DNA from: a virus
IMG/VR virus record: IMGVR_UViG_3300013458_000003
Coordinates: 1-40,888 of that record
Strand: one strand, 5' to 3'
DNA: 40,888 nt
The position numbers and the translations under genes were made by a program. The notes beneath the pieces were generated by a model, which was not told the origin of the DNA, did no database searches, and saw only the letters and a program-made list of their open reading frames with translations. Position 1 is the first letter of the stretch; the number at the start of each line of letters is the position of its first letter. Below, in pieces: positions 4,945-32,435 of this stretch.

Positions 4945-5670
4945 GTGGATATTATTATAGTATATGGTCCACCTGCAAGTGGTAAGACTACATATGTTAA
5001 GCAACATATAACTAATGAAGACATGGTTTATGATTATAATGCTATATCACAATCACTCACACTAAGTGATCAATACTGTATGCCACAGGCTCATGACACT
5101 TGTATACTCATACGCAATATGATGCTCGATTATACTCAACATATAAGTAAAGGTAAGTTATATGTCATTACTACTTATTTATCCAAGAAGATAACAGATA
5201 GAGTATCTAACTATCACATAGTTAGAATGGATACTGATATAGATACGTGTATCGAACGCGTGAACAATAGTGATAGACCAGATAAAGATAAAGCCAAGCA
5301 AGTTATAAGAGAATGGTTTAATGATGGTAAAAGTAAACCTGCAAGTGATCGTCATGTAGATAAAGAAACAATGAGATTTTATAAATCAAAAAAGTGGCGT
5401 GAACTCAGAGAAAAGGTTTTATTAAGAGATAATTATGAATGCCAAGAATGCAAAAAGGAAGGCATAGTAAAAACTATAGATTACACAAAACACAAGTCTC
5501 TTGATGTTGACCATATTAAAGAGTTAGATAGTCATCCTGATTTAGCTTACGATATGGATAATTTAATCACGCTATGTGTGAGTTGTCATAACAAAAAGCA
5601 TAATAGATATCAAAAAGGGAAAGCATTTCCTAAAAAAGAAACAAAATGGACTGGCGATGAATGGTGGTAA
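4945..5670 (+). CDS. HNH endonuclease fused to an N-terminal P-loop NTPase/kinase-like domain
   Basis: Walker A GPPASGKTT at the N-terminus. The C-terminus carries CQECKK..VDHIKE..NLITLCVSCHNKKH (HNH). GTG start with a GGAGGTGA RBS. Confidence 0.75.
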   Translation: MDIIIVYGPPASGKTTYVKQHITNEDMVYDYNAISQSLTLSDQYCMPQAHDTCILIRNMMLDYTQHISKGKLYVITTYLSKKITDRVSNYHIVRMDTDIDTCIERVNNSDRPDKDKAKQVIREWFNDGKSKPASDRHVDKETMRFYKSKKWRELREKVLLRDNYECQECKKEGIVKTIDYTKHKSLDVDHIKELDSHPDLAYDMDNLITLCVSCHNKKHNRYQKGKAFPKKETKWTGDEWW

Positions 5671-9736: not shown

Positions 9737-10945
9737 ATGACGATAAAATTTAAAGATTCAATCAACAAAGATGTTGAGAATTTAAAGAATGAATATTTTG
9801 AGGCAGTAAGAAATGACGCTGACCCTGAAACGATTGAAAATAAATATGCGGAATACATGGCTGCTTTCTCTTCTAATTTGCAGAACGAAGTGTTAAAAGA
9901 AGCGCGTGAAGAAGTTTATAACACTTCGACAGATAAGCAAGTGCGTATGAATCGTGGAGAAAACATTCTTACTGCTGAAGAATCACGTTTCTTTACTAAT
10001 TTAGTAGAAGATGACGCAAACTTAGACACTTACAAAGAAGAGGTTGTTTTACCGGAATCTACAGTATTACGTGTATTTGAAGATATGCAAAAAGCACGAC
10101 CTCTATTATCTAAAATTAATTTTCAAATCGCTGGAATTAAAACGCGTTTAATCGTTGGAGACCCTAAAGGTGCTGCTGTTTGGGGAGAAGTATTCGGTAA
10201 GATTCAAGGGCAAATTCAAGCGAATTTTAAAGAATTGAATTTCTCACAAAATAAATTAACTGCATTTGCCATCGTGCCTAAAGATATGTTGGAGTTTGGT
10301 CCAGAATGGATTGAGCGTTATGTTCGCTTGCAATTAGCGGAAGCGATGGCACTTAAATTAGAAGAAGGTATTGTTAAAGGTAACGGTGCAGCATCAAACC
10401 AACCTTATGGACTAACAAAAGATTTAACATATGATACAGACGGCGTAACTATTACTGGCGCGACTGATAAAGTATCATCAGGGACATTGACATTCGCGGA
10501 TGCTCAAACTACCGCTAATGAATTAGCACAAGCGCTTACGACGCTTTCAACTAAAGAGAATGGAGCGCAAGTAGACGTAAGTACAGGTGTAACACTTCTG
10601 GTTAACCCAGCAGATCAATTCTATGTAAAAGCACAAAATACTATGCAAACAGTAAACGGTGCTTGGGTAACGTCGTTGCCATTTAACGTAGATGTTGTAG
10701 CATCAGAGTTTGTAGACCCTGATAAAGCTATTTTTGTTGTAGGAAGTCGTTATTATGCAGTTCAAACCGGCTCAGTAACAATCAAGTCATATGACCAAAC
10801 GCTTGCGTTAGAAGATGCTGATGTGTTTATCGCAAAACAGTTTGCACACGGTATGCCAGACGATAATAAAGTAGCTTTGGTTTACGACTTGGATATCGCA
10901 TCAAAACCATCCGCTGACTCAGTATCACCTGATGTAGGCGCATAA
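9737..10945 (+). CDS. Major capsid protein (HK97 fold)
   Basis: 402 aa following the protease. Conserved position and size. Confidence 0.8.
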   Translation: MTIKFKDSINKDVENLKNEYFEAVRNDADPETIENKYAEYMAAFSSNLQNEVLKEAREEVYNTSTDKQVRMNRGENILTAEESRFFTNLVEDDANLDTYKEEVVLPESTVLRVFEDMQKARPLLSKINFQIAGIKTRLIVGDPKGAAVWGEVFGKIQGQIQANFKELNFSQNKLTAFAIVPKDMLEFGPEWIERYVRLQLAEAMALKLEEGIVKGNGAASNQPYGLTKDLTYDTDGVTITGATDKVSSGTLTFADAQTTANELAQALTTLSTKENGAQVDVSTGVTLLVNPADQFYVKAQNTMQTVNGAWVTSLPFNVDVVASEFVDPDKAIFVVGSRYYAVQTGSVTIKSYDQTLALEDADVFIAKQFAHGMPDDNKVALVYDLDIASKPSADSVSPDVGA

Positions 10946-27063: not shown

Positions 27064-28449
27064 TCAGTAGAACTCGATATCCTTTATTTTAAGGGAACGA
27101 CGTTTCTTTTTGTTATCATTCTTACCTAATACATATTCGATAAATATATTCTTTATCGCCATTTGAATAAATTCAGCTTTTTCTTCATCACTTGAAATAT
27201 CCCACATCTCAAGTAACAAGTTTTTGTACTGTTTTATATCTTCGGTGTCATACTGCTTAACCTCTTCATTCTCACTTTGCTTTTTATATTCTTCGATTGC
27301 TATATCTGTTTCTTCAATCAATTCGGCCAACTCATCTTCATTCATAAGTCCGTTAGCATATAGCTTATGGTATCTTTTTCGTTGCTGCATAATTTTGTTG
27401 ATATCGATTGTAATTTCTTTTTCTTCCTTATCCTCAACGATGTCATATTGCGTTAAATCTTGATGTTGTAGATACTCATAGAACACTCGTTCTACTTCTT
27501 CGGAACGTATATACACAGGTTTTAAATTTGGTGTCTCTTTGCAATTATTGCAGTAATAGTGCTTGTTATAATACACTCTATCTTTCAGTGTTACCTTATG
27601 AGTATTCATCGTTAATTTACTATCACAAACAGGACAAACTAATTTACTTCTGAATATAGATACGTGCTTTATCTTTTTAGTATTCGTTCGTTCTTCTAAT
27701 CTATCCTTAACTTTCTCGTACATTTCTTCAGTAATAATAGGCTCGTGGTTATTCTCTAGATAAACGCCACCCCATTCAAAGTGTCCTCTTGTAAACGGAC
27801 TTCTCAATGCTCGTGTGATTGACCTATCTTCCCACTTTCTATTGTTTGGTGGTGGAATATCTGAATTATTTAATTTCCGTGCTATCGATTTAGCGCTTTT
27901 ACCTTTTAACGCCTCCTCATAAGCAAATAACACAACCTCTTTATATTTATTAGGCACAAACTTATTATCGACACGATCATAATAAAACGGTGGAGTAGTC
28001 AGCATGATACCTTTTTTAAGTGCTGCAAGTTTACCCATTTGTGTACGTTCTCTAATCGTTTCACGTTCCCATTCAGCCATTGCACCGACTAATGTGACAA
28101 ATAATCGTCCCATTGCAGTTGAAGTATCATATACTTCTGTTGCGCTTCTAAAAGCTACATTATTCTGTTCAAATATCTCTAGTAAGTCCAATAAGTCACG
28201 TACATTACGTGTAAGCCTATCTAACTTGTACACTAAGATTAAATCAAACCGTTTAATATCATTCATCATTCGTTGTAATTCTGGTCGGTCACGTTTAGCA
28301 CCAGAGAAACCAGCGTCAACAAATACATCAGCTACATTCCAATCATTTATTTCACAAAATGATTTAAGTTTCCGTTCTTGTTCTTCAATAGAATAGCCAT
28401 GTTCTTTTTGCTCTAGTGTACTAACACGACAATATATTGCTACGTTCAT
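27064..28449 (-). CDS. int: Large serine recombinase (integrase)
   Basis: 461 aa. N-terminal resolvase domain IYCRVSTLEQ....YKLDRLTRN, followed by large recombinase and zinc-ribbon/coiled-coil regions. GAGGTGA RBS. Confidence 0.9.
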   Translation of the reverse strand: MNVAIYCRVSTLEQKEHGYSIEEQERKLKSFCEINDWNVADVFVDAGFSGAKRDRPELQRMMNDIKRFDLILVYKLDRLTRNVRDLLDLLEIFEQNNVAFRSATEVYDTSTAMGRLFVTLVGAMAEWERETIRERTQMGKLAALKKGIMLTTPPFYYDRVDNKFVPNKYKEVVLFAYEEALKGKSAKSIARKLNNSDIPPPNNRKWEDRSITRALRSPFTRGHFEWGGVYLENNHEPIITEEMYEKVKDRLEERTNTKKIKHVSIFRSKLVCPVCDSKLTMNTHKVTLKDRVYYNKHYYCNNCKETPNLKPVYIRSEEVERVFYEYLQHQDLTQYDIVEDKEEKEITIDINKIMQQRKRYHKLYANGLMNEDELAELIEETDIAIEEYKKQSENEEVKQYDTEDIKQYKNLLLEMWDISSDEEKAEFIQMAIKNIFIEYVLGKNDNKKKRRSLKIKDIEFY

Positions 28450-28508: not shown

Positions 28509-29102
28509 TCATTCTTCATAGTCACTAGGATCATACTCATAACCATACTTTTCTGCATCTCGTTTACGTATCTCTTCTTTTTCTGATTGAGTAGCATTAG
28601 TCCATTCCTCTTGACCTTTAATCCACTCATCTGGCTCTTCATTTTGAGAGTCAGAAGGTTCGTTTACATCTTCTGGATCAATCAACCCATAATCAGTTCC
28701 TCCAGGAATATTTTGTTTATCCCATTCGTATATCTCATCTTTTGTTGGTTCATGGTAAGATTGTTGGTCGTTATAGTTTTGTTGATTAGCTTGTTGTGTT
28801 TGCTGTTGTTCTTGAGTTGCAGGTTGTTGAAATTGAACTTGTTCATTTGTAGCAGTTTCTTGAGTGTCTTGTTCTTCAGTAGAATTCTCTTCTTGTGTAG
28901 ATTTGTTATCTTCATTTTCTTGAGATTTCTTTTCTTCTTTAGACTTTTTATCCTCTTTGGATTTATTGTCTTTTTTATCTTCTGATTTCTTTTCAGTTTT
29001 ATTTTCTGACTTAGTATCAGAATCTTTGTTAGATGTGTCATTATTACCACACGCGCCTAAGATTAAAGCACCGCTAAAAATTAAAGCTAAAAACTTTTTC
29101 AT
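28509..29102 (-). CDS. Acidic low-complexity lipoprotein (signal peptide with lipobox LGAC)
   Basis: True start MKKFLALIFSGALILGACGNN at 29102 with an AAGGAG RBS. The longer ORF-track start lacks an RBS. Mature part is K/E/D/Q-rich. Confidence 0.7.
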   Translation of the reverse strand: MKKFLALIFSGALILGACGNNDTSNKDSDTKSENKTEKKSEDKKDNKSKEDKKSKEEKKSQENEDNKSTQEENSTEEQDTQETATNEQVQFQQPATQEQQQTQQANQQNYNDQQSYHEPTKDEIYEWDKQNIPGGTDYGLIDPEDVNEPSDSQNEEPDEWIKGQEEWTNATQSEKEEIRKRDAEKYGYEYDPSDYEE

Positions 29103-29118
29103 ATGTATTTCTCCTTTA

Positions 29119-29589
29119 CTATATATCTTTATATTCAAACACTCGTAATGGCTCAAACTGAATAACGTATTTACCACACCGAGTTGAGTGACCGAATTTT
29201 TGCTGATAGTGATTCAAAGTTTGAAGTACAAACGATTCACTTACTTCGAAATAATCAGCTAATTCATATAGGTTATGAACATTTTGTAGGTATGCACTTA
29301 TTAATTCTTTAAGAGGTATTAGAATTTCACAAGCTAATCTACGAGCTTTCAACTCATATTTTTTGTTTTGTATATCTTTATCATCGAGTATGTTCCCATA
29401 AGTAATTTCATGGTGTGCTACTTCTTCGGCTAAAGTTTCTAATTTAATTGTAGTAGGGCGATTACTATTAATAAATATTTCGCCGTTCATATAGAAACCA
29501 GACATAAACTTAGGAATACTTCCAGTTTCATTTATAGATATGTAGTCGTACTTTTTTAATAAATCTTCGTATCTCCCCATACAAAACAC
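29119..29589 (-). CDS. ImmA/IrrE-like (DUF955-like) protein adjacent to the repressor
   Basis: 156 aa immediately downstream of the cI-like gene. The motif region reads AHHEITYG, not the canonical HExxH. Confidence 0.45.
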   Translation of the reverse strand: MFCMGRYEDLLKKYDYISINETGSIPKFMSGFYMNGEIFINSNRPTTIKLETLAEEVAHHEITYGNILDDKDIQNKKYELKARRLACEILIPLKELISAYLQNVHNLYELADYFEVSESFVLQTLNHYQQKFGHSTRCGKYVIQFEPLRVFEYKDI

Positions 29590-29959: not shown

Positions 29960-30090
29960 TAATTTGATAATTCCATTATATAGGAAGGGAAACGGATAAA
30001 CAAGCATTTTTCCGATTTTATCCGAATATTTTTTCTTCGAAACGGAAATTTCCGTTTGACATTCCGAATTAACTCGGTTTATAATTGGTA
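29960..30090. promoter_or_regulatory. Divergent promoter/operator region of the lysis-lysogeny switch
   Basis: Perfect 18-bp palindrome AAACGGAAATTTCCGTTT at 30040-30057 overlaps TTGACA (30056-61) with TATAAT at 30080-85 rightward. TTCCGa(t/a)TT half-sites at about 30010, 30021 and 30062. A leftward TTGTTT/TATAAT lies on the minus strand at about 29975-30005. Confidence 0.6.
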
Positions 30091-30120: not shown

Positions 30121-30369
30121 ATGCAAATTACTATGAGAGCCGCTAGAGTAAACGCTGGCTTAACACAAGAAAAAGCGTCTAAAAGGCTTGGTATTAATGC
30201 TGACACTCTTTCTAGATATGAGAAAGATAACTCTAGAATACCTAGAAATATTATTGCAGAAATTCCAAAGGTTTATTTTATCGACAGTGATAATATTTTT
30301 TTTGGTAAAGAAACCGAGTTTTTTCGGAATTTATCTAAAGAGAATTCAGAAGAAAATATAGAAACTTAA
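30121..30369 (+). CDS. Cro-like XRE-family HTH regulator
   Basis: RVNAGLTQEKASKRLGINADTLSRYEKDNS is HTH. Divergent to cI. Confidence 0.7.
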   Translation: MQITMRAARVNAGLTQEKASKRLGINADTLSRYEKDNSRIPRNIIAEIPKVYFIDSDNIFFGKETEFFRNLSKENSEENIET

Positions 30370-30523
30370 TAATTAAAAACTCAGTAAGTTTCAACGCTCA
30401 CATTGAGCGTATAAGAGCGAGAGTGAGCGACGATATGAGCCACACCTAAATACATTAATAAAAGGTCATTGCCAAGACTGTACGTTGAATGTGGGCGTTG
30501 AAAAGAAGAAGGAGGAAATAGAA

Positions 30524-31300
30524 ATGCAAGATTTGCAAGTAGTAGAACAAAATAATGAATTTTATGTAGACAGTCGAGAAGTAGCTGAAATGGTAGGTAA
30601 AAGGCACACAGATTTATTAAGAGATATAGATAATTATTTGAGTGTAATTTTACAAAACGCAAAATTGCGTTCTGCAGATTTCTTTGTTGCATCGAGTTAT
30701 ACATCTAACAACAACAATATGTATAAATGTTACCTACTTACTAAAAAAGGTTGTGACATGGTAGCAAATAAAATGACAGGTTCAAAAGGTGTACTGTTCA
30801 CAGCAATGTATGTAGATGCATTTCACAAAATGGACGAACACATTAAACAACAAGCACAAATCAGTACACCAACAAGTCAATTAGAAGCAATAAAGATGTT
30901 CGTACAAATACAAGAAGAACAACAAGCATTTAATCAACGTATCGAAAATGAAGTGACAGGTATCAGAAATATCGTAGGCATAGAAACGAAAAACTGGCGT
31001 AATGATACAAACAAAATACTATCAGCCATTGCTCAACATTTAGGCGGTGGAGATATGCACAAGAAAATTAAAGCAGAAGCATATACAGCACTTGAAGAAA
31101 AAGGTCGCTGCAACTTAAAAGTTCGCATGCAAAACAGAAAAGGAAAAATGCTAGCTAATGGTGCTACAAAAACACAAATAAATAAATTATCAAAATTGGA
31201 TGTAATCAATGATGATCCAAGATTAATTGAAATTTATATATCAGTAATTAAAAGTATGGCAATTAAATATGGCGTTGACGTAAGTCAATTTGAAATTTAA
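30524..31300 (+). CDS. Antirepressor (Rha/Ant-family N-terminal domain)
   Basis: MQDLQVVEQNNEFYVDSREVAEMVGKRHTDLLRDI matches the Rha-type regulatory domain. GGAGGA RBS. The first ATG of the ORF-track ORF lacks an RBS. Confidence 0.65.
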   Translation: MQDLQVVEQNNEFYVDSREVAEMVGKRHTDLLRDIDNYLSVILQNAKLRSADFFVASSYTSNNNNMYKCYLLTKKGCDMVANKMTGSKGVLFTAMYVDAFHKMDEHIKQQAQISTPTSQLEAIKMFVQIQEEQQAFNQRIENEVTGIRNIVGIETKNWRNDTNKILSAIAQHLGGGDMHKKIKAEAYTALEEKGRCNLKVRMQNRKGKMLANGATKTQINKLSKLDVINDDPRLIEIYISVIKSMAIKYGVDVSQFEI

Positions 31301-31312
31301 GGAGGAATAACA

Positions 31313-31459
31313 ATGAACTTTTTATACAAAGTAGCATTAGTTTTTGTAACAACAACTATATTATGGAAAATTTCAAAAATAGAAAAATATTCAAAACCTA
31401 TTCAAATAGAATTTTCAGGTGTTTCTAGCGATTTAAGAGCAAGCAAATTTAGAGGATAG
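31313..31459 (+). CDS. Small hydrophobic protein (48 aa, below ORF cutoff)
   Basis: AAGGAGGA RBS. TM segment VALVFVTTTILW. Confidence 0.35.
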   Translation: MNFLYKVALVFVTTTILWKISKIEKYSKPIQIEFSGVSSDLRASKFRG

Positions 31460-31514: not shown

Positions 31515-31655
31515 ATGCTAAAGAAATTAAAAATAGCACTCCTAATCGTCATCTTGGTGGAGGAGATTAGAAGTGCTAAGCGAAATAAAAACCAATTTCA
31601 TGGAATAAAAATAAAAACTAATAAAAATGGAACATCAAAAATAACAATCTGTTAA
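31515..31655 (+). CDS. Small hydrophobic protein (46 aa, below ORF cutoff)
   Basis: AAAGGAGGA RBS. TM segment IALLIVILV. Confidence 0.35.
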   Translation: MLKKLKIALLIVILVEEIRSAKRNKNQFHGIKIKTNKNGTSKITIC

Positions 31656-31671
31656 TTAAATGGAGGACATT

Positions 31672-31917
31672 ATGAACATACAAGATGCAACGAAATTAGC
31701 TACTAAAAAACTTTTAACTATGACACGAAAGGAATGGGAAGGAAGTCATCAAACTCGAGTGTTGCCGACAAATGATAGTTTTTTACATTGCATTGTAACA
31801 AGTAATGATGGAAAACACCTCATTAGATATTGGCAACCTTCAGCAGATGACTTAATGGCAGAAGATTGGGAAGTAATAAATCCAATTAAAGACCAGGAAT
31901 TATTGAAGCTATTTTAG
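31672..31917 (+). CDS. DUF2829-like small protein (Tad2-like candidate)
   Basis: RKEWEG ... YWQPSADDLMAEDWEVI resembles the GW.GKG ... W..SQ.DLLAEDWEV pattern of DUF2829. GGAGG RBS. Confidence 0.4.
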   Translation: MNIQDATKLATKKLLTMTRKEWEGSHQTRVLPTNDSFLHCIVTSNDGKHLIRYWQPSADDLMAEDWEVINPIKDQELLKLF

Positions 31918-32251
31918 AAATATTATCAATTATACTTTGCAAATTATTTTTAAACGCATTTTCAAAATAAACGATAGTCTTATCCGAAATAGTTACATGA
32001 TAAATAGTGTTGTCTGCAAAAACACCATTAATAAAACCAGATTTTTTAAGTTTCTTTAAGTCGTTTTCTACATCTTCGAAATGTAGTTTTTGAAAATACT
32101 TAGAATGTATATCTTCTGCACTTTCAAAATCATTGCAACTTAATTTAACAGCACCAGACTTTACACACTCTAAATAATTTTTATAAAGGACAGACAGTAT
32201 ATACTGCTGATCTTTGGTAAGTATCTCGAACTCGTCAGATATTAAAGACAT
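31886..32251 (-). CDS. Reverse-oriented moron gene of unknown function with its own promoter
   Basis: Only minus-strand gene inside the plus-strand early region. Start MSLISDEF at 32251 with a GGAGGTG RBS. Extended -10 TGGTATAAT on the minus strand at about 32270-32280. The 3' end overlaps the convergent 31672..31917 gene by 32 nt. Confidence 0.5.
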   Translation of the reverse strand: MSLISDEFEILTKDQQYILSVLYKNYLECVKSGAVKLSCNDFESAEDIHSKYFQKLHFEDVENDLKKLKKSGFINGVFADNTIYHVTISDKTIVYFENAFKNNLQSIIDNISKIASIIPGL

Positions 32252-32303
32252 ATATAACACCTCCAAAGGTGATTATACCAAACACACGAAAGGAGTGGTC
32301 TTA

Positions 32304-32435
32304 ATGCCACCACACATTCAAACAATGATGTTAAAACACTTTAAACATCATCTACCAGAAGCACTTGAAAGATGTAAACAAAAAGAAAAGGAAAGAAAGG
32401 AGCGAGAGAATGAGAAACAAAAGAAGATTAGTTAG
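32304..32435 (+). CDS. Small basic protein (43 aa)
   Basis: AAGGAG RBS 6 nt upstream of the ATG at 32304. Confidence 0.3.
   Translation: MPPHIQTMMLKHFKHHLPEALERCKQKEKERKERENEKQKKIS

Follow-up and report, generated by a model that had tools for sequence, protein, structure and literature searches.

A short Tad2-family gene with an overlapping, convergent winged-helix partner in a staphylococcal phage: a candidate sponge for an immune signal

A Tad2-family gene in the early region

The window described here is the whole of a 40,888-bp stretch of viral DNA (positions 1 to 40,888 of IMG/VR record IMGVR_UViG_3300013458_000003), which, judging from its gene order, is probably a complete temperate Staphylococcus siphovirus, either as a whole phage or as a prophage contig. 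In its rightward early region lies a small gene of the Tad2 family (DUF2829), a family best known for phage proteins that act as sponges for the signalling molecules of Thoeris immunity, and tail to tail with this gene, on the opposite strand, lies a second gene whose product is a predicted winged-helix protein. The explanation that best accounts for the locus, to which we assign a probability of about 0.6, is that a minimal Tad2 sponge is encoded within a cro-antirepressor operon and forms a cassette with its convergent winged-helix partner. The features of the pair are as follows.

31672-31917, plus strand: Tad2-like (DUF2829) coding sequence of the minimal subfamily, 81 aa plus stop codon, assigned from the open reading frame (ORF), Pfam, the fold and the ratio of nonsynonymous to synonymous substitution rates (dN/dS)
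31662-31667, plus strand: ribosome-binding site GGAGGA, 4 nt 5' of the ATG at 31672, read from the sequence
31886-32251, minus strand: partner coding sequence, 121 aa plus stop codon, predicted winged-helix protein, phrog_750 (E = 1.2e-51)
32258-32264, minus strand: ribosome-binding site GGAGGTG of the partner, read from the sequence
32272-32280, minus strand: extended -10 promoter-like element TGgTATAAT, a consensus match

An in-frame ATG lies further upstream, at 31660, and is the start chosen by automatic pipelines, giving a product of 85 aa. We take 31672 to be the true start, because hundreds of relatives begin with MNIQ. The initial annotation, which was made without database searches, was right that the ORF is real, and gave its product as 82 aa, a figure that should read 81 aa plus the stop codon. 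That annotation had also likened the protein to DUF2829 on the basis of two motifs, both of which are found in the translation, TRKEWEG (residues 18-24) and YWQPSADDLMAEDWEVI (residues 53-69). Of the two, the C-terminal one is a true signature of the family, whereas the N-terminal one fits the family pattern GWNGK only at W..G, the sequence here being E-W-E-G-S.

A hidden Markov model (HMM) search places the protein in the family without difficulty, and the outcome named as refuting in the initial annotation, the lack of a significant DUF2829 match, was not observed. The Pfam model PF11195 ("Thoeris anti-defense 2-like domain"), which is 73 positions long and has a gathering score of 25 bits, was matched over its full length (model 1-73/73, residues 1-69) with 46.3 bits and E = 6.3e-12, while NCBIfam yielded no family for this protein or those around it. 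An AlphaFold2 model, computed as a single chain from an alignment of 78 sequences, reached a predicted local distance difference test score (pLDDT) of 83.7 and a predicted template modelling score (pTM) of 0.72. It consists of a helix at residues 3-13, strands at 16-19, 28-32, 40-44 and 50-52, a helix at 58-62 and a strand at 66-69, that is, the order α1-β1-β2-β3-β4-α-β5. When this model was compared with the PDB using Foldseek, the best 12 matches were all Tad2, with probability 1.00 and template modelling scores (TM-scores) of 0.58-0.70, and the next match had a probability of 0.63. The Tad2 matches were ModTad2 (8V3E, 9EIB), SPO1 Tad2 (8SME, 8SMF, 8SMG, 8WJE), SptTad2 (8WJD) and HgmTad2, also known as AcrIIA7 (8KBI, 8KBJ, 8KBK), so that the comparison with the Tad2 structure proposed in the initial annotation led to Tad2 crystal structures alone. 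The protein is also below 100 aa in length (81 aa), phage-encoded and located in the early region.

The Tad2 fold and family membership are thus settled, and they are ordinary in themselves, having already been made by standard annotation pipelines; the NCBI/UniRef name of a 93%-identical S. hominis protein is "Thoeris anti-defense Tad2 family protein". Taking together the Pfam match, the Tad2 fold and this public annotation of near-identical proteins, "candidate anti-Thoeris sponge" was a fair label for the gene. The exact protein and 29 close relatives were found in Staphylococcus and Mammaliicoccus only. Beyond them, an exhaustive profile search recovered 581 cluster representatives at E <= 0.001, most of them 65-80 aa long, so that this "minimal Tad2" type is abundant. 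A genome scan found short Tad2-like proteins in Staphylococcus, Bacillus, Geobacillus, Enterococcus, Lactobacillales and many gut Clostridia, often as several paralogues per genome. Genomes such as those of S. pseudoxylosus S04009, S. simulans PFJB-50N and S. americanisciuri hold two or three diverged short paralogues in different prophage regions, with 35-84% identity to the query, and a set of longer relatives of 164-183 aa (P0121-P0125, P0135, P0145, P0180) contain two Tad2-like stretches each, as tandem-duplicated short domains. The gene is under strong purifying selection, with pairwise dN/dS values of 0.22 against the orthologue of the S. aureus phage tp310-2 and 0.11 against that of S. 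simulans.

The initial annotation had noted that the gene follows an antirepressor and two micro-ORFs with strong ribosome-binding sites, a context that was borne out, and the features preceding the Tad2-like gene are these.

30056-30085, plus strand: early rightward promoter-like site, TTGACA-18-TATAAT, sigma-70-like, 12/12 matches in a promoter scan
30121-30369, plus strand: cro-like helix-turn-helix (HTH) gene opening the early operon, taken from the ORF list; its position matches the Cro/HTH genes of StB27 and tp310-2
30485-31300, plus strand: Rha/antirepressor gene, Pfam Phage_pRha (E = 3e-24), phrog_373 anti-repressor family
31313-31459, plus strand: micro-ORF of 48 aa, phrog_4309 (E = 7.8e-07), hydrophobic N-terminus, strong AAGGAGGA-type ribosome-binding site
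31515-31655, plus strand: micro-ORF of 46 aa, phrog_16149 (E = 1e-11), hydrophobic N-terminus, strong AAGGAGGA-type ribosome-binding site

The Tad2-like gene is the fifth after the site at 30056-30085, which likely drives the whole series of cro, antirepressor, micro-ORFs and Tad2-like gene; a scan that covered promoters as well as terminators found no terminator-like site on the plus strand between 30330 and 31917. The leaders of the two micro-ORFs are near-identical, sharing a 22-nt repeat (family D2) with 82% identity and the AAGGAGGA Shine-Dalgarno sequence, and their products resemble small membrane proteins, the PHROG families 4309 and 16149 being of unknown function. Within the phage collection, the window is closest to StB12 and StB27, two phages of S. 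hominis, with which it shares ~91-92% identity in patches only. Both the Tad2-like and the partner gene are absent from these two phages, where other small genes occupy the same position, and the suggestion that the locus is an anti-defence hotspot is reasonable in that light.

The convergent partner and a proposed two-gene cassette

The element that is new here is the conserved convergent partner, which we have not found described and which the initial annotation had passed over. Its 3' end overlaps that of the Tad2-like coding sequence tail to tail by 32 nt (31886-31917). Apart from its PHROG family, the protein had no sequence match in Pfam, NCBIfam, PADLOC or the PDB; a sub-threshold match to the plant family TPD1_C in the Pfam search was rejected as spurious. 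The model of the partner (pLDDT 85.5) combines a helical bundle with a wing of two strands and, at the C-terminus, a long helix, and its fold matches are winged-helix regulators of the MarR/ArsR type, namely MepR, PefR, AntR, RosR and HlyU, with probabilities of 0.99-1.0. The dN/dS of the partner is 0.05-0.09, and of six phages that are otherwise diverged, five have a TGnTATAAT-like element 5' of its orthologue. A search for operators found no convincing repeated one and no enriched family. A perfect 9+3+9 palindrome, ATGTTAAAAcacTTTAAACAT, is situated at 32328-32348, about 50 nt upstream of the -10 element of the partner and inside a small plus-strand ORF, and is a possible operator, although the window has no second good copy of it (3 loose matches against 0.97 expected).

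The pair appears to have travelled together. When the window was compared with phages by megablast, those of the S. aureus Sa2/PVL type matched at 81% identity over a segment spanning exactly the Tad2-like and partner genes and nothing else. The orthologues in these Sa2/Triavirus prophages (phi12p07, MW1434 and tp310-2 p13) are likewise 81 aa long, are 72-73% identical to the window protein, share with it a loop of the WKESH type and overlap a phrog_750 partner by 32 nt as well; they differ in belonging to another host species group and another phage backbone, and carry the labels "transcriptional regulator", "DUF2829" and "type I TA toxin". The Tad2-like profile led to a set of 51 Firmicute genome loci, a single one for each species, and in 31 of them a phrog_750-like gene was directly convergent, with a gap of -13 to +8 nt in almost all cases. 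The hosts of the convergent pair include Flavonifractor, Oscillospiraceae, Lachnospiraceae, Bacillus and Geobacillus, at protein identities of 21-45%. Several of the remaining loci have another convergent gene of ~100-115 aa, and the two of these that were scanned both match YjcQ and phrog_3675, in each case below threshold; a literature search on YjcQ returned nothing relevant.

The same association is seen from the side of the partner. Out of 93 loci collected with a close partner alignment and three single-protein scans, 90 had a convergent Tad2-like gene, made up of 80/80 Sa2-like loci, which are redundant, and 10/13 diverse viral ones. In the other three viral contigs, the partner is convergent and overlapping with an unrelated ORF of 58-65 aa (MMDTFRVTKDK...), which had no match in Pfam or PHROG. 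It could be a different anti-defence cargo and is the sole alternative type of cargo seen; two instances are located as follows.

L140, 2317-2511, minus strand: alternative cargo ORF, convergent with a phrog_750-like gene
L142, 2317-2514, minus strand: alternative cargo ORF, convergent with a phrog_750-like gene

From this distribution we read the Tad2-like gene and its partner as a putative mobile two-gene cassette. An analogy, for the partner gene only, is offered by the Aca HTH regulators, likewise small genes with a DNA-binding fold, which for the partner is predicted, and tied in diverse phages to an anti-defence gene, here a candidate one, perhaps with an occasional swap of cargo. The analogy extends only so far, as aca genes lie downstream in the acr operon, whereas the partner gene is convergent and overlapping and encodes a predicted winged-helix protein (MarR/ArsR/YjcQ-like) rather than a classic Aca HTH. 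Going by the anatomy of the locus, either the partner protein or its antisense transcription probably governs expression of the sponge, for example by silencing it in lysogeny.

The ligand pocket and the competing readings of function

The family's founding member, SPO1 Tad2 (gp34.65; 8SME, 8SMF, 8SMG), is a sponge for glycocyclic ADP-ribose (gcADPR) and provides the closest basis for a comparison of pockets. It shares with the window protein the PF11195 domain, the order of secondary structure elements, the C-terminal motif W-x-P-S-x-x-D-[LV]-x-A-E-D-W and the character of a small early phage protein, at ~20% identity (phmmer E = 0.02, from the C-terminus alone). In the SPO1 Tad2-gcADPR complex, van der Waals contacts come from W25 and W73, the phosphates and hydroxyls are reached by polar contacts from N26 and D79, the adenine has T78, I63 and T65 in its vicinity, and D67, H71 and S76 hold waters (Yirmiya et al. 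preprint). Mapping of these positions by MAFFT and by phmmer gave concordant results, with W25, W73, S76 and D79 kept as W22, W54, S57 and D60, and with W66 of the window protein aligned to W85. Among 224 short relatives the equivalent of W54 is present in 219 and that of D60 in 217, and the near-invariant positions are W54, P56, D60, L61 and W66; W22 is kept in 86/224. The W/W/S/D core and the place in the early operon fit the role of a gcADPR sponge.

Several findings weigh against carrying that role over from the solved structures. SPO1 N26, the phosphate contact, is replaced by Glu23. In HgmTad2 the corresponding N22, together with G23, from both protomers holds the diphosphate, and a W21A/N22A mutant loses binding; the HgmTad2 residues W21/N22/G23 become W22/E23/G24 in the window protein. 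Five further contact or water positions of SPO1 Tad2 are changed (T78 to D59, I63 to S44, T65 to D46, D67 to K48 and H71 to R52), and Glu21 instead of Gly precedes W22, the GWNGK of the β1-β2 loop being absent. Position 23 is variable as well, being E, K, G or D in the close staphylococcal clade and K, F, E, G, R or D in the 224 short relatives, where Asn falls outside the six commonest residues.

The region between β2 and β3 differs as well. In SPO1 Tad2 it comprises 24 residues (36-59) with the F44 stack and with helix α2, which forms the V-shaped dimer interface, and in HgmTad2 it comprises 41 residues that build the cyclic-dinucleotide pocket (S47, F70, R31/N85). In the model of the window protein there is instead a loop of 7 residues (33-39, P-T-N-D-S-F-L) and no helix, and the HgmTad2 pocket is missing. 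The window protein (81 aa against the 89 aa of SPO1 Tad2) accordingly has a core that is ~20 residues shorter, and bears an extra C-terminal tail of 12 residues modelled at low confidence. ModTad2 (8V3E, 9EIB), which binds His-ADP-ribose (His-ADPR) and cUMP and is the best Foldseek match (TM-score 0.64-0.70), has the same C-terminal motif, but also REGWNGK and an extended post-β2 region forming a second pocket, neither of which is found in the window protein. As the PF11195 model has only 73 positions, the α2 insertion is a trait of the solved members and not of the Pfam family. Because a key ligand contact and the dimer interface differ from every solved Tad2, transfer of "gcADPR sponge" is unsafe, and neither the ligand nor the assembly of the minimal subfamily can be transferred from SPO1 Tad2; the Tad2 homotetramer, which has its ligand pockets where protomers meet, is a putative assembly for the window protein. 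The lost Asn, the missing α2 interface and the variable β1-β2 loop all argue against a confident transfer of ligand; the searchable literature holds no binding or rescue data for staphylococcal or short-subfamily members, and the deeply conserved partner hints at a function beyond a simple sponge.

The specificity of the family also varies. The initial annotation had spoken of established gcADPR sponges, but members are reported to bind His-ADPR, N7-cyclic ADP-ribose (N7-cADPR), cUMP/cCMP and cyclic dinucleotides too (PMC12393519). The signals correspond to different systems: 3'cADPR to type I Thoeris, His-ADPR to type II, N7-cADPR to type IV, cUMP/cCMP to Pycsar and cyclic dinucleotides to CBASS. 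When diverse Tad2 homologues from distant hosts were assayed, one or more signalling defences were inhibited by four out of five and, in later work, by most of 18. On these analogies, it is fairly probable that the window protein is a sponge for an immune signal of some kind, and the assignment of gcADPR in particular is tentative, at somewhat under even odds. It is the best guess because staphylococcal type I Thoeris, known from 32 highly conserved operons, makes this signal, its ThsB1/ThsB2 producing 1''-3' gcADPR upon sensing the capsid protein of siphoviruses (PMC12578639); since staphylococci carry such a system, a gcADPR sponge would be useful to this phage.

It can thus be hypothesized that the Tad2-fold protein is made early in the lytic cycle of a temperate siphovirus of coagulase-negative Staphylococcus, from the cro-antirepressor operon, and that it would assemble, as predicted by homology, into a homo-oligomer whose inter-subunit pockets bind and withhold an immune signal derived from a nucleotide, leaving the host effector off. 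The most likely target would be 1''-3' gcADPR from ThsB1/ThsB2, the activator of the NADase ThsA. The timing of sponge production would be set by the partner protein or its antisense transcription, which may also silence the sponge in the lysogen.

The phage phi12 might seem to speak for such a role. The S. aureus system Sau-Thoeris restricted phi80alpha-vir, phiNM1gamma6, phiNM4gamma4, phiJ1, J2 and J4, and not phi12gamma3 (PMC12578639). In phi12 (NC_004616), p07 (5015-5260, plus strand, "transcriptional regulator") is the 72%-identical orthologue of the window protein, and the orthologue of the partner, which belongs to phrog_750 and is unannotated, lies at 5232-5606 on the minus strand. A search by HMM of the complete 80alpha and phiNM1 genomes and of the first 12 kb of phiNM4 brought up no Tad2-like ORF, and the phrog_750 partner was absent from the same sequences, so that the presence or absence of the Tad2-like gene tracks insensitivity or sensitivity to Sau-Thoeris across these four phages. 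However, the phi12 capsid protein does not activate ThsB1/B2, either in vivo or in vitro (PMC12578639), and because this lack of recognition fully confounds the correlation, it is no evidence for an anti-Thoeris role. The putative major capsid protein of the window (9737-10942) has no similarity to the major head proteins of phi12 or 80alpha and is uninformative on sensing by Sau-Thoeris.

A bolder extension of the sponge hypothesis, which we hold to be rather doubtful, is that the short "MNIQ...PTN...WQPSADDL" proteins of Firmicute prophages are a distinct functional subclass, always accompanied by a convergent, overlapping YjcQ-like winged-helix gene as a lysogeny lock, with a remodelled pocket and possibly a signal as yet unassigned. 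The winged-helix protein and antisense transcription would lock the sponge, so that the prophage spares the signalling immunity of its own host, an Aca-like principle applied to anti-Thoeris genes in an antisense layout. The pocket, without the canonical Asn and often without the first Trp, would possibly make use of the conserved PTN loop.

Of the alternatives to gcADPR sequestration, the one that survives best, though unlikely, is that the protein is a sponge for another signal: His-ADPR, N7-cADPR, cUMP/cCMP, a CBASS cyclic dinucleotide or the cyclic oligoadenylate of type III-A CRISPR. Type III-A CRISPR systems are common in coagulase-negative staphylococci. That Tad2 members are documented for the first four of these signals, with specificity shifting within the family, makes the idea attractive, as does the loss of the canonical WN (E23 for N26, W22 in the minority given above). 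The near-invariant L-P-T-N (residues 31-34) at the start of the β2-β3 loop (P in 216/224, T in 216/224 and N in 199/224 of the short relatives) is also shared after β2 by HgmTad2/AcrIIA7 (8KBI-8KBM), which has the same fold and binds gcADPR as well as cyclic dinucleotides; there it spans L36-N39, with L36 stacked against the cGG guanine of the second pocket. Some of the specific candidates meet with difficulties, however. The insertion that forms the cyclic-dinucleotide pocket of HgmTad2 and SptTad2 is missing, the His-ADPR binder ModTad2 retains GWNGK, so that loss of N26 does not suggest His-ADPR, and no data connect a Tad2 with cyclic oligoadenylates. Moreover, the W/W/S/D core favours an ADPR-type ligand in the canonical pocket.

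We regard as quite improbable a second alternative, in which the protein is not primarily a sponge and belongs, with the winged-helix protein, to a module of two genes (a pair akin to toxin-antitoxin, say, or a switch governing superinfection or lysis-lysogeny), the Tad2 fold serving for instance as a sensor of small molecules. The retention of a convergent overlapping pair from Staphylococcus to Clostridia (31/51 and 90/93 loci), the strong purifying selection on both genes and the movement as a unit seen by megablast would be expected of such a module, and no convergent winged-helix partner stands beside SPO1 Tad2. Yet ~40% of the short Tad2-like genes have no detectable phrog_750 partner, and the three loci in which the partner is paired with an unrelated ORF are better fitted by a regulator with swappable cargo than by an obligate pair. 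The PADLOC defence models match neither gene, and the experimentally studied proteins of the Tad2 fold are all sponges.

Three functions attached to the family by name or history fare worse. PHROG 643 ("transcriptional regulator", E = 1.2e-30) and RefSeq, which uses the same label for tp310-2 p13 and phi12p07, would make the protein a transcriptional regulator, a very improbable reading, as there is no HTH or other DNA-binding fold and the only structural relatives by Foldseek are Tad2 sponges; we rejected the label on these grounds of fold, and it may have been misplaced from the convergent neighbour, which does bear a winged-helix fold. An AcrIIA7-like inhibitor of Cas9 is as improbable: the earliest description of DUF2829 proteins was as anti-CRISPRs of type II-A, and AcrIIA7 (HgmTad2) shares the fold, 8KBI being among the matches, but its identity to the window protein is only 16-19%, no interaction between AcrIIA7 and Cas9 was ever demonstrated, and its family is now interpreted as one of sponges. 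The type I toxin-antitoxin (TA) toxin of some database records ("MW1434 family type I TA system toxin"), whose layout the convergent 3' overlap recalls, is most improbable and was rejected, as the name derives from a prediction table (PMC6266405) in which MW1434 was listed and never expressed, only MW2354, MW1888 and MW1381 being assayed, the modelled protein is soluble, of the α/β Tad2 fold, and lacks any hydrophobic membrane segment, and the likely antisense transcript (from 32272-32280) would be the messenger of a conserved protein of 121 aa and not a small RNA.

Genomic surroundings and significance

The remainder of the window has the gene order of packaging, head, tail, lysis, serine integrase, a CI-like repressor accompanied by a metalloprotease gene, and then the rightward early region.

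27064-28449, minus strand: serine integrase

Between the integrase and the metalloprotease and CI genes lies a lipoprotein-like gene (28509-29177, minus strand) whose 222-aa product is of low complexity and rich in K, E, D and Q. It takes the place of the DUF5067 gene of StB27 and gave a weak, sub-threshold PADLOC match (PDC-M17A, E = 0.0022). This gene is probably a moron expressed in lysogeny. The same PADLOC scan, of eight proteins of the locus, gave no match for the metalloprotease gene, the Tad2-like gene, its partner or the four further small ORFs.

Taken alone, the Tad2-like gene is a routine anti-defence annotation. The short subfamily to which it belongs is nevertheless common in prophages of Staphylococcus, Bacillus, Enterococcus and gut Clostridia, and its role is directly testable, as a test system for S. 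aureus type I Thoeris exists and phi12, the phage that escapes it, carries the same pair. That role could matter for the prediction of host range in staphylococcal phage therapy. The partner, for its part, may act generally among temperate phages in regulating sponge expression and, if this is true, could serve as a genomic marker for new anti-defence genes.

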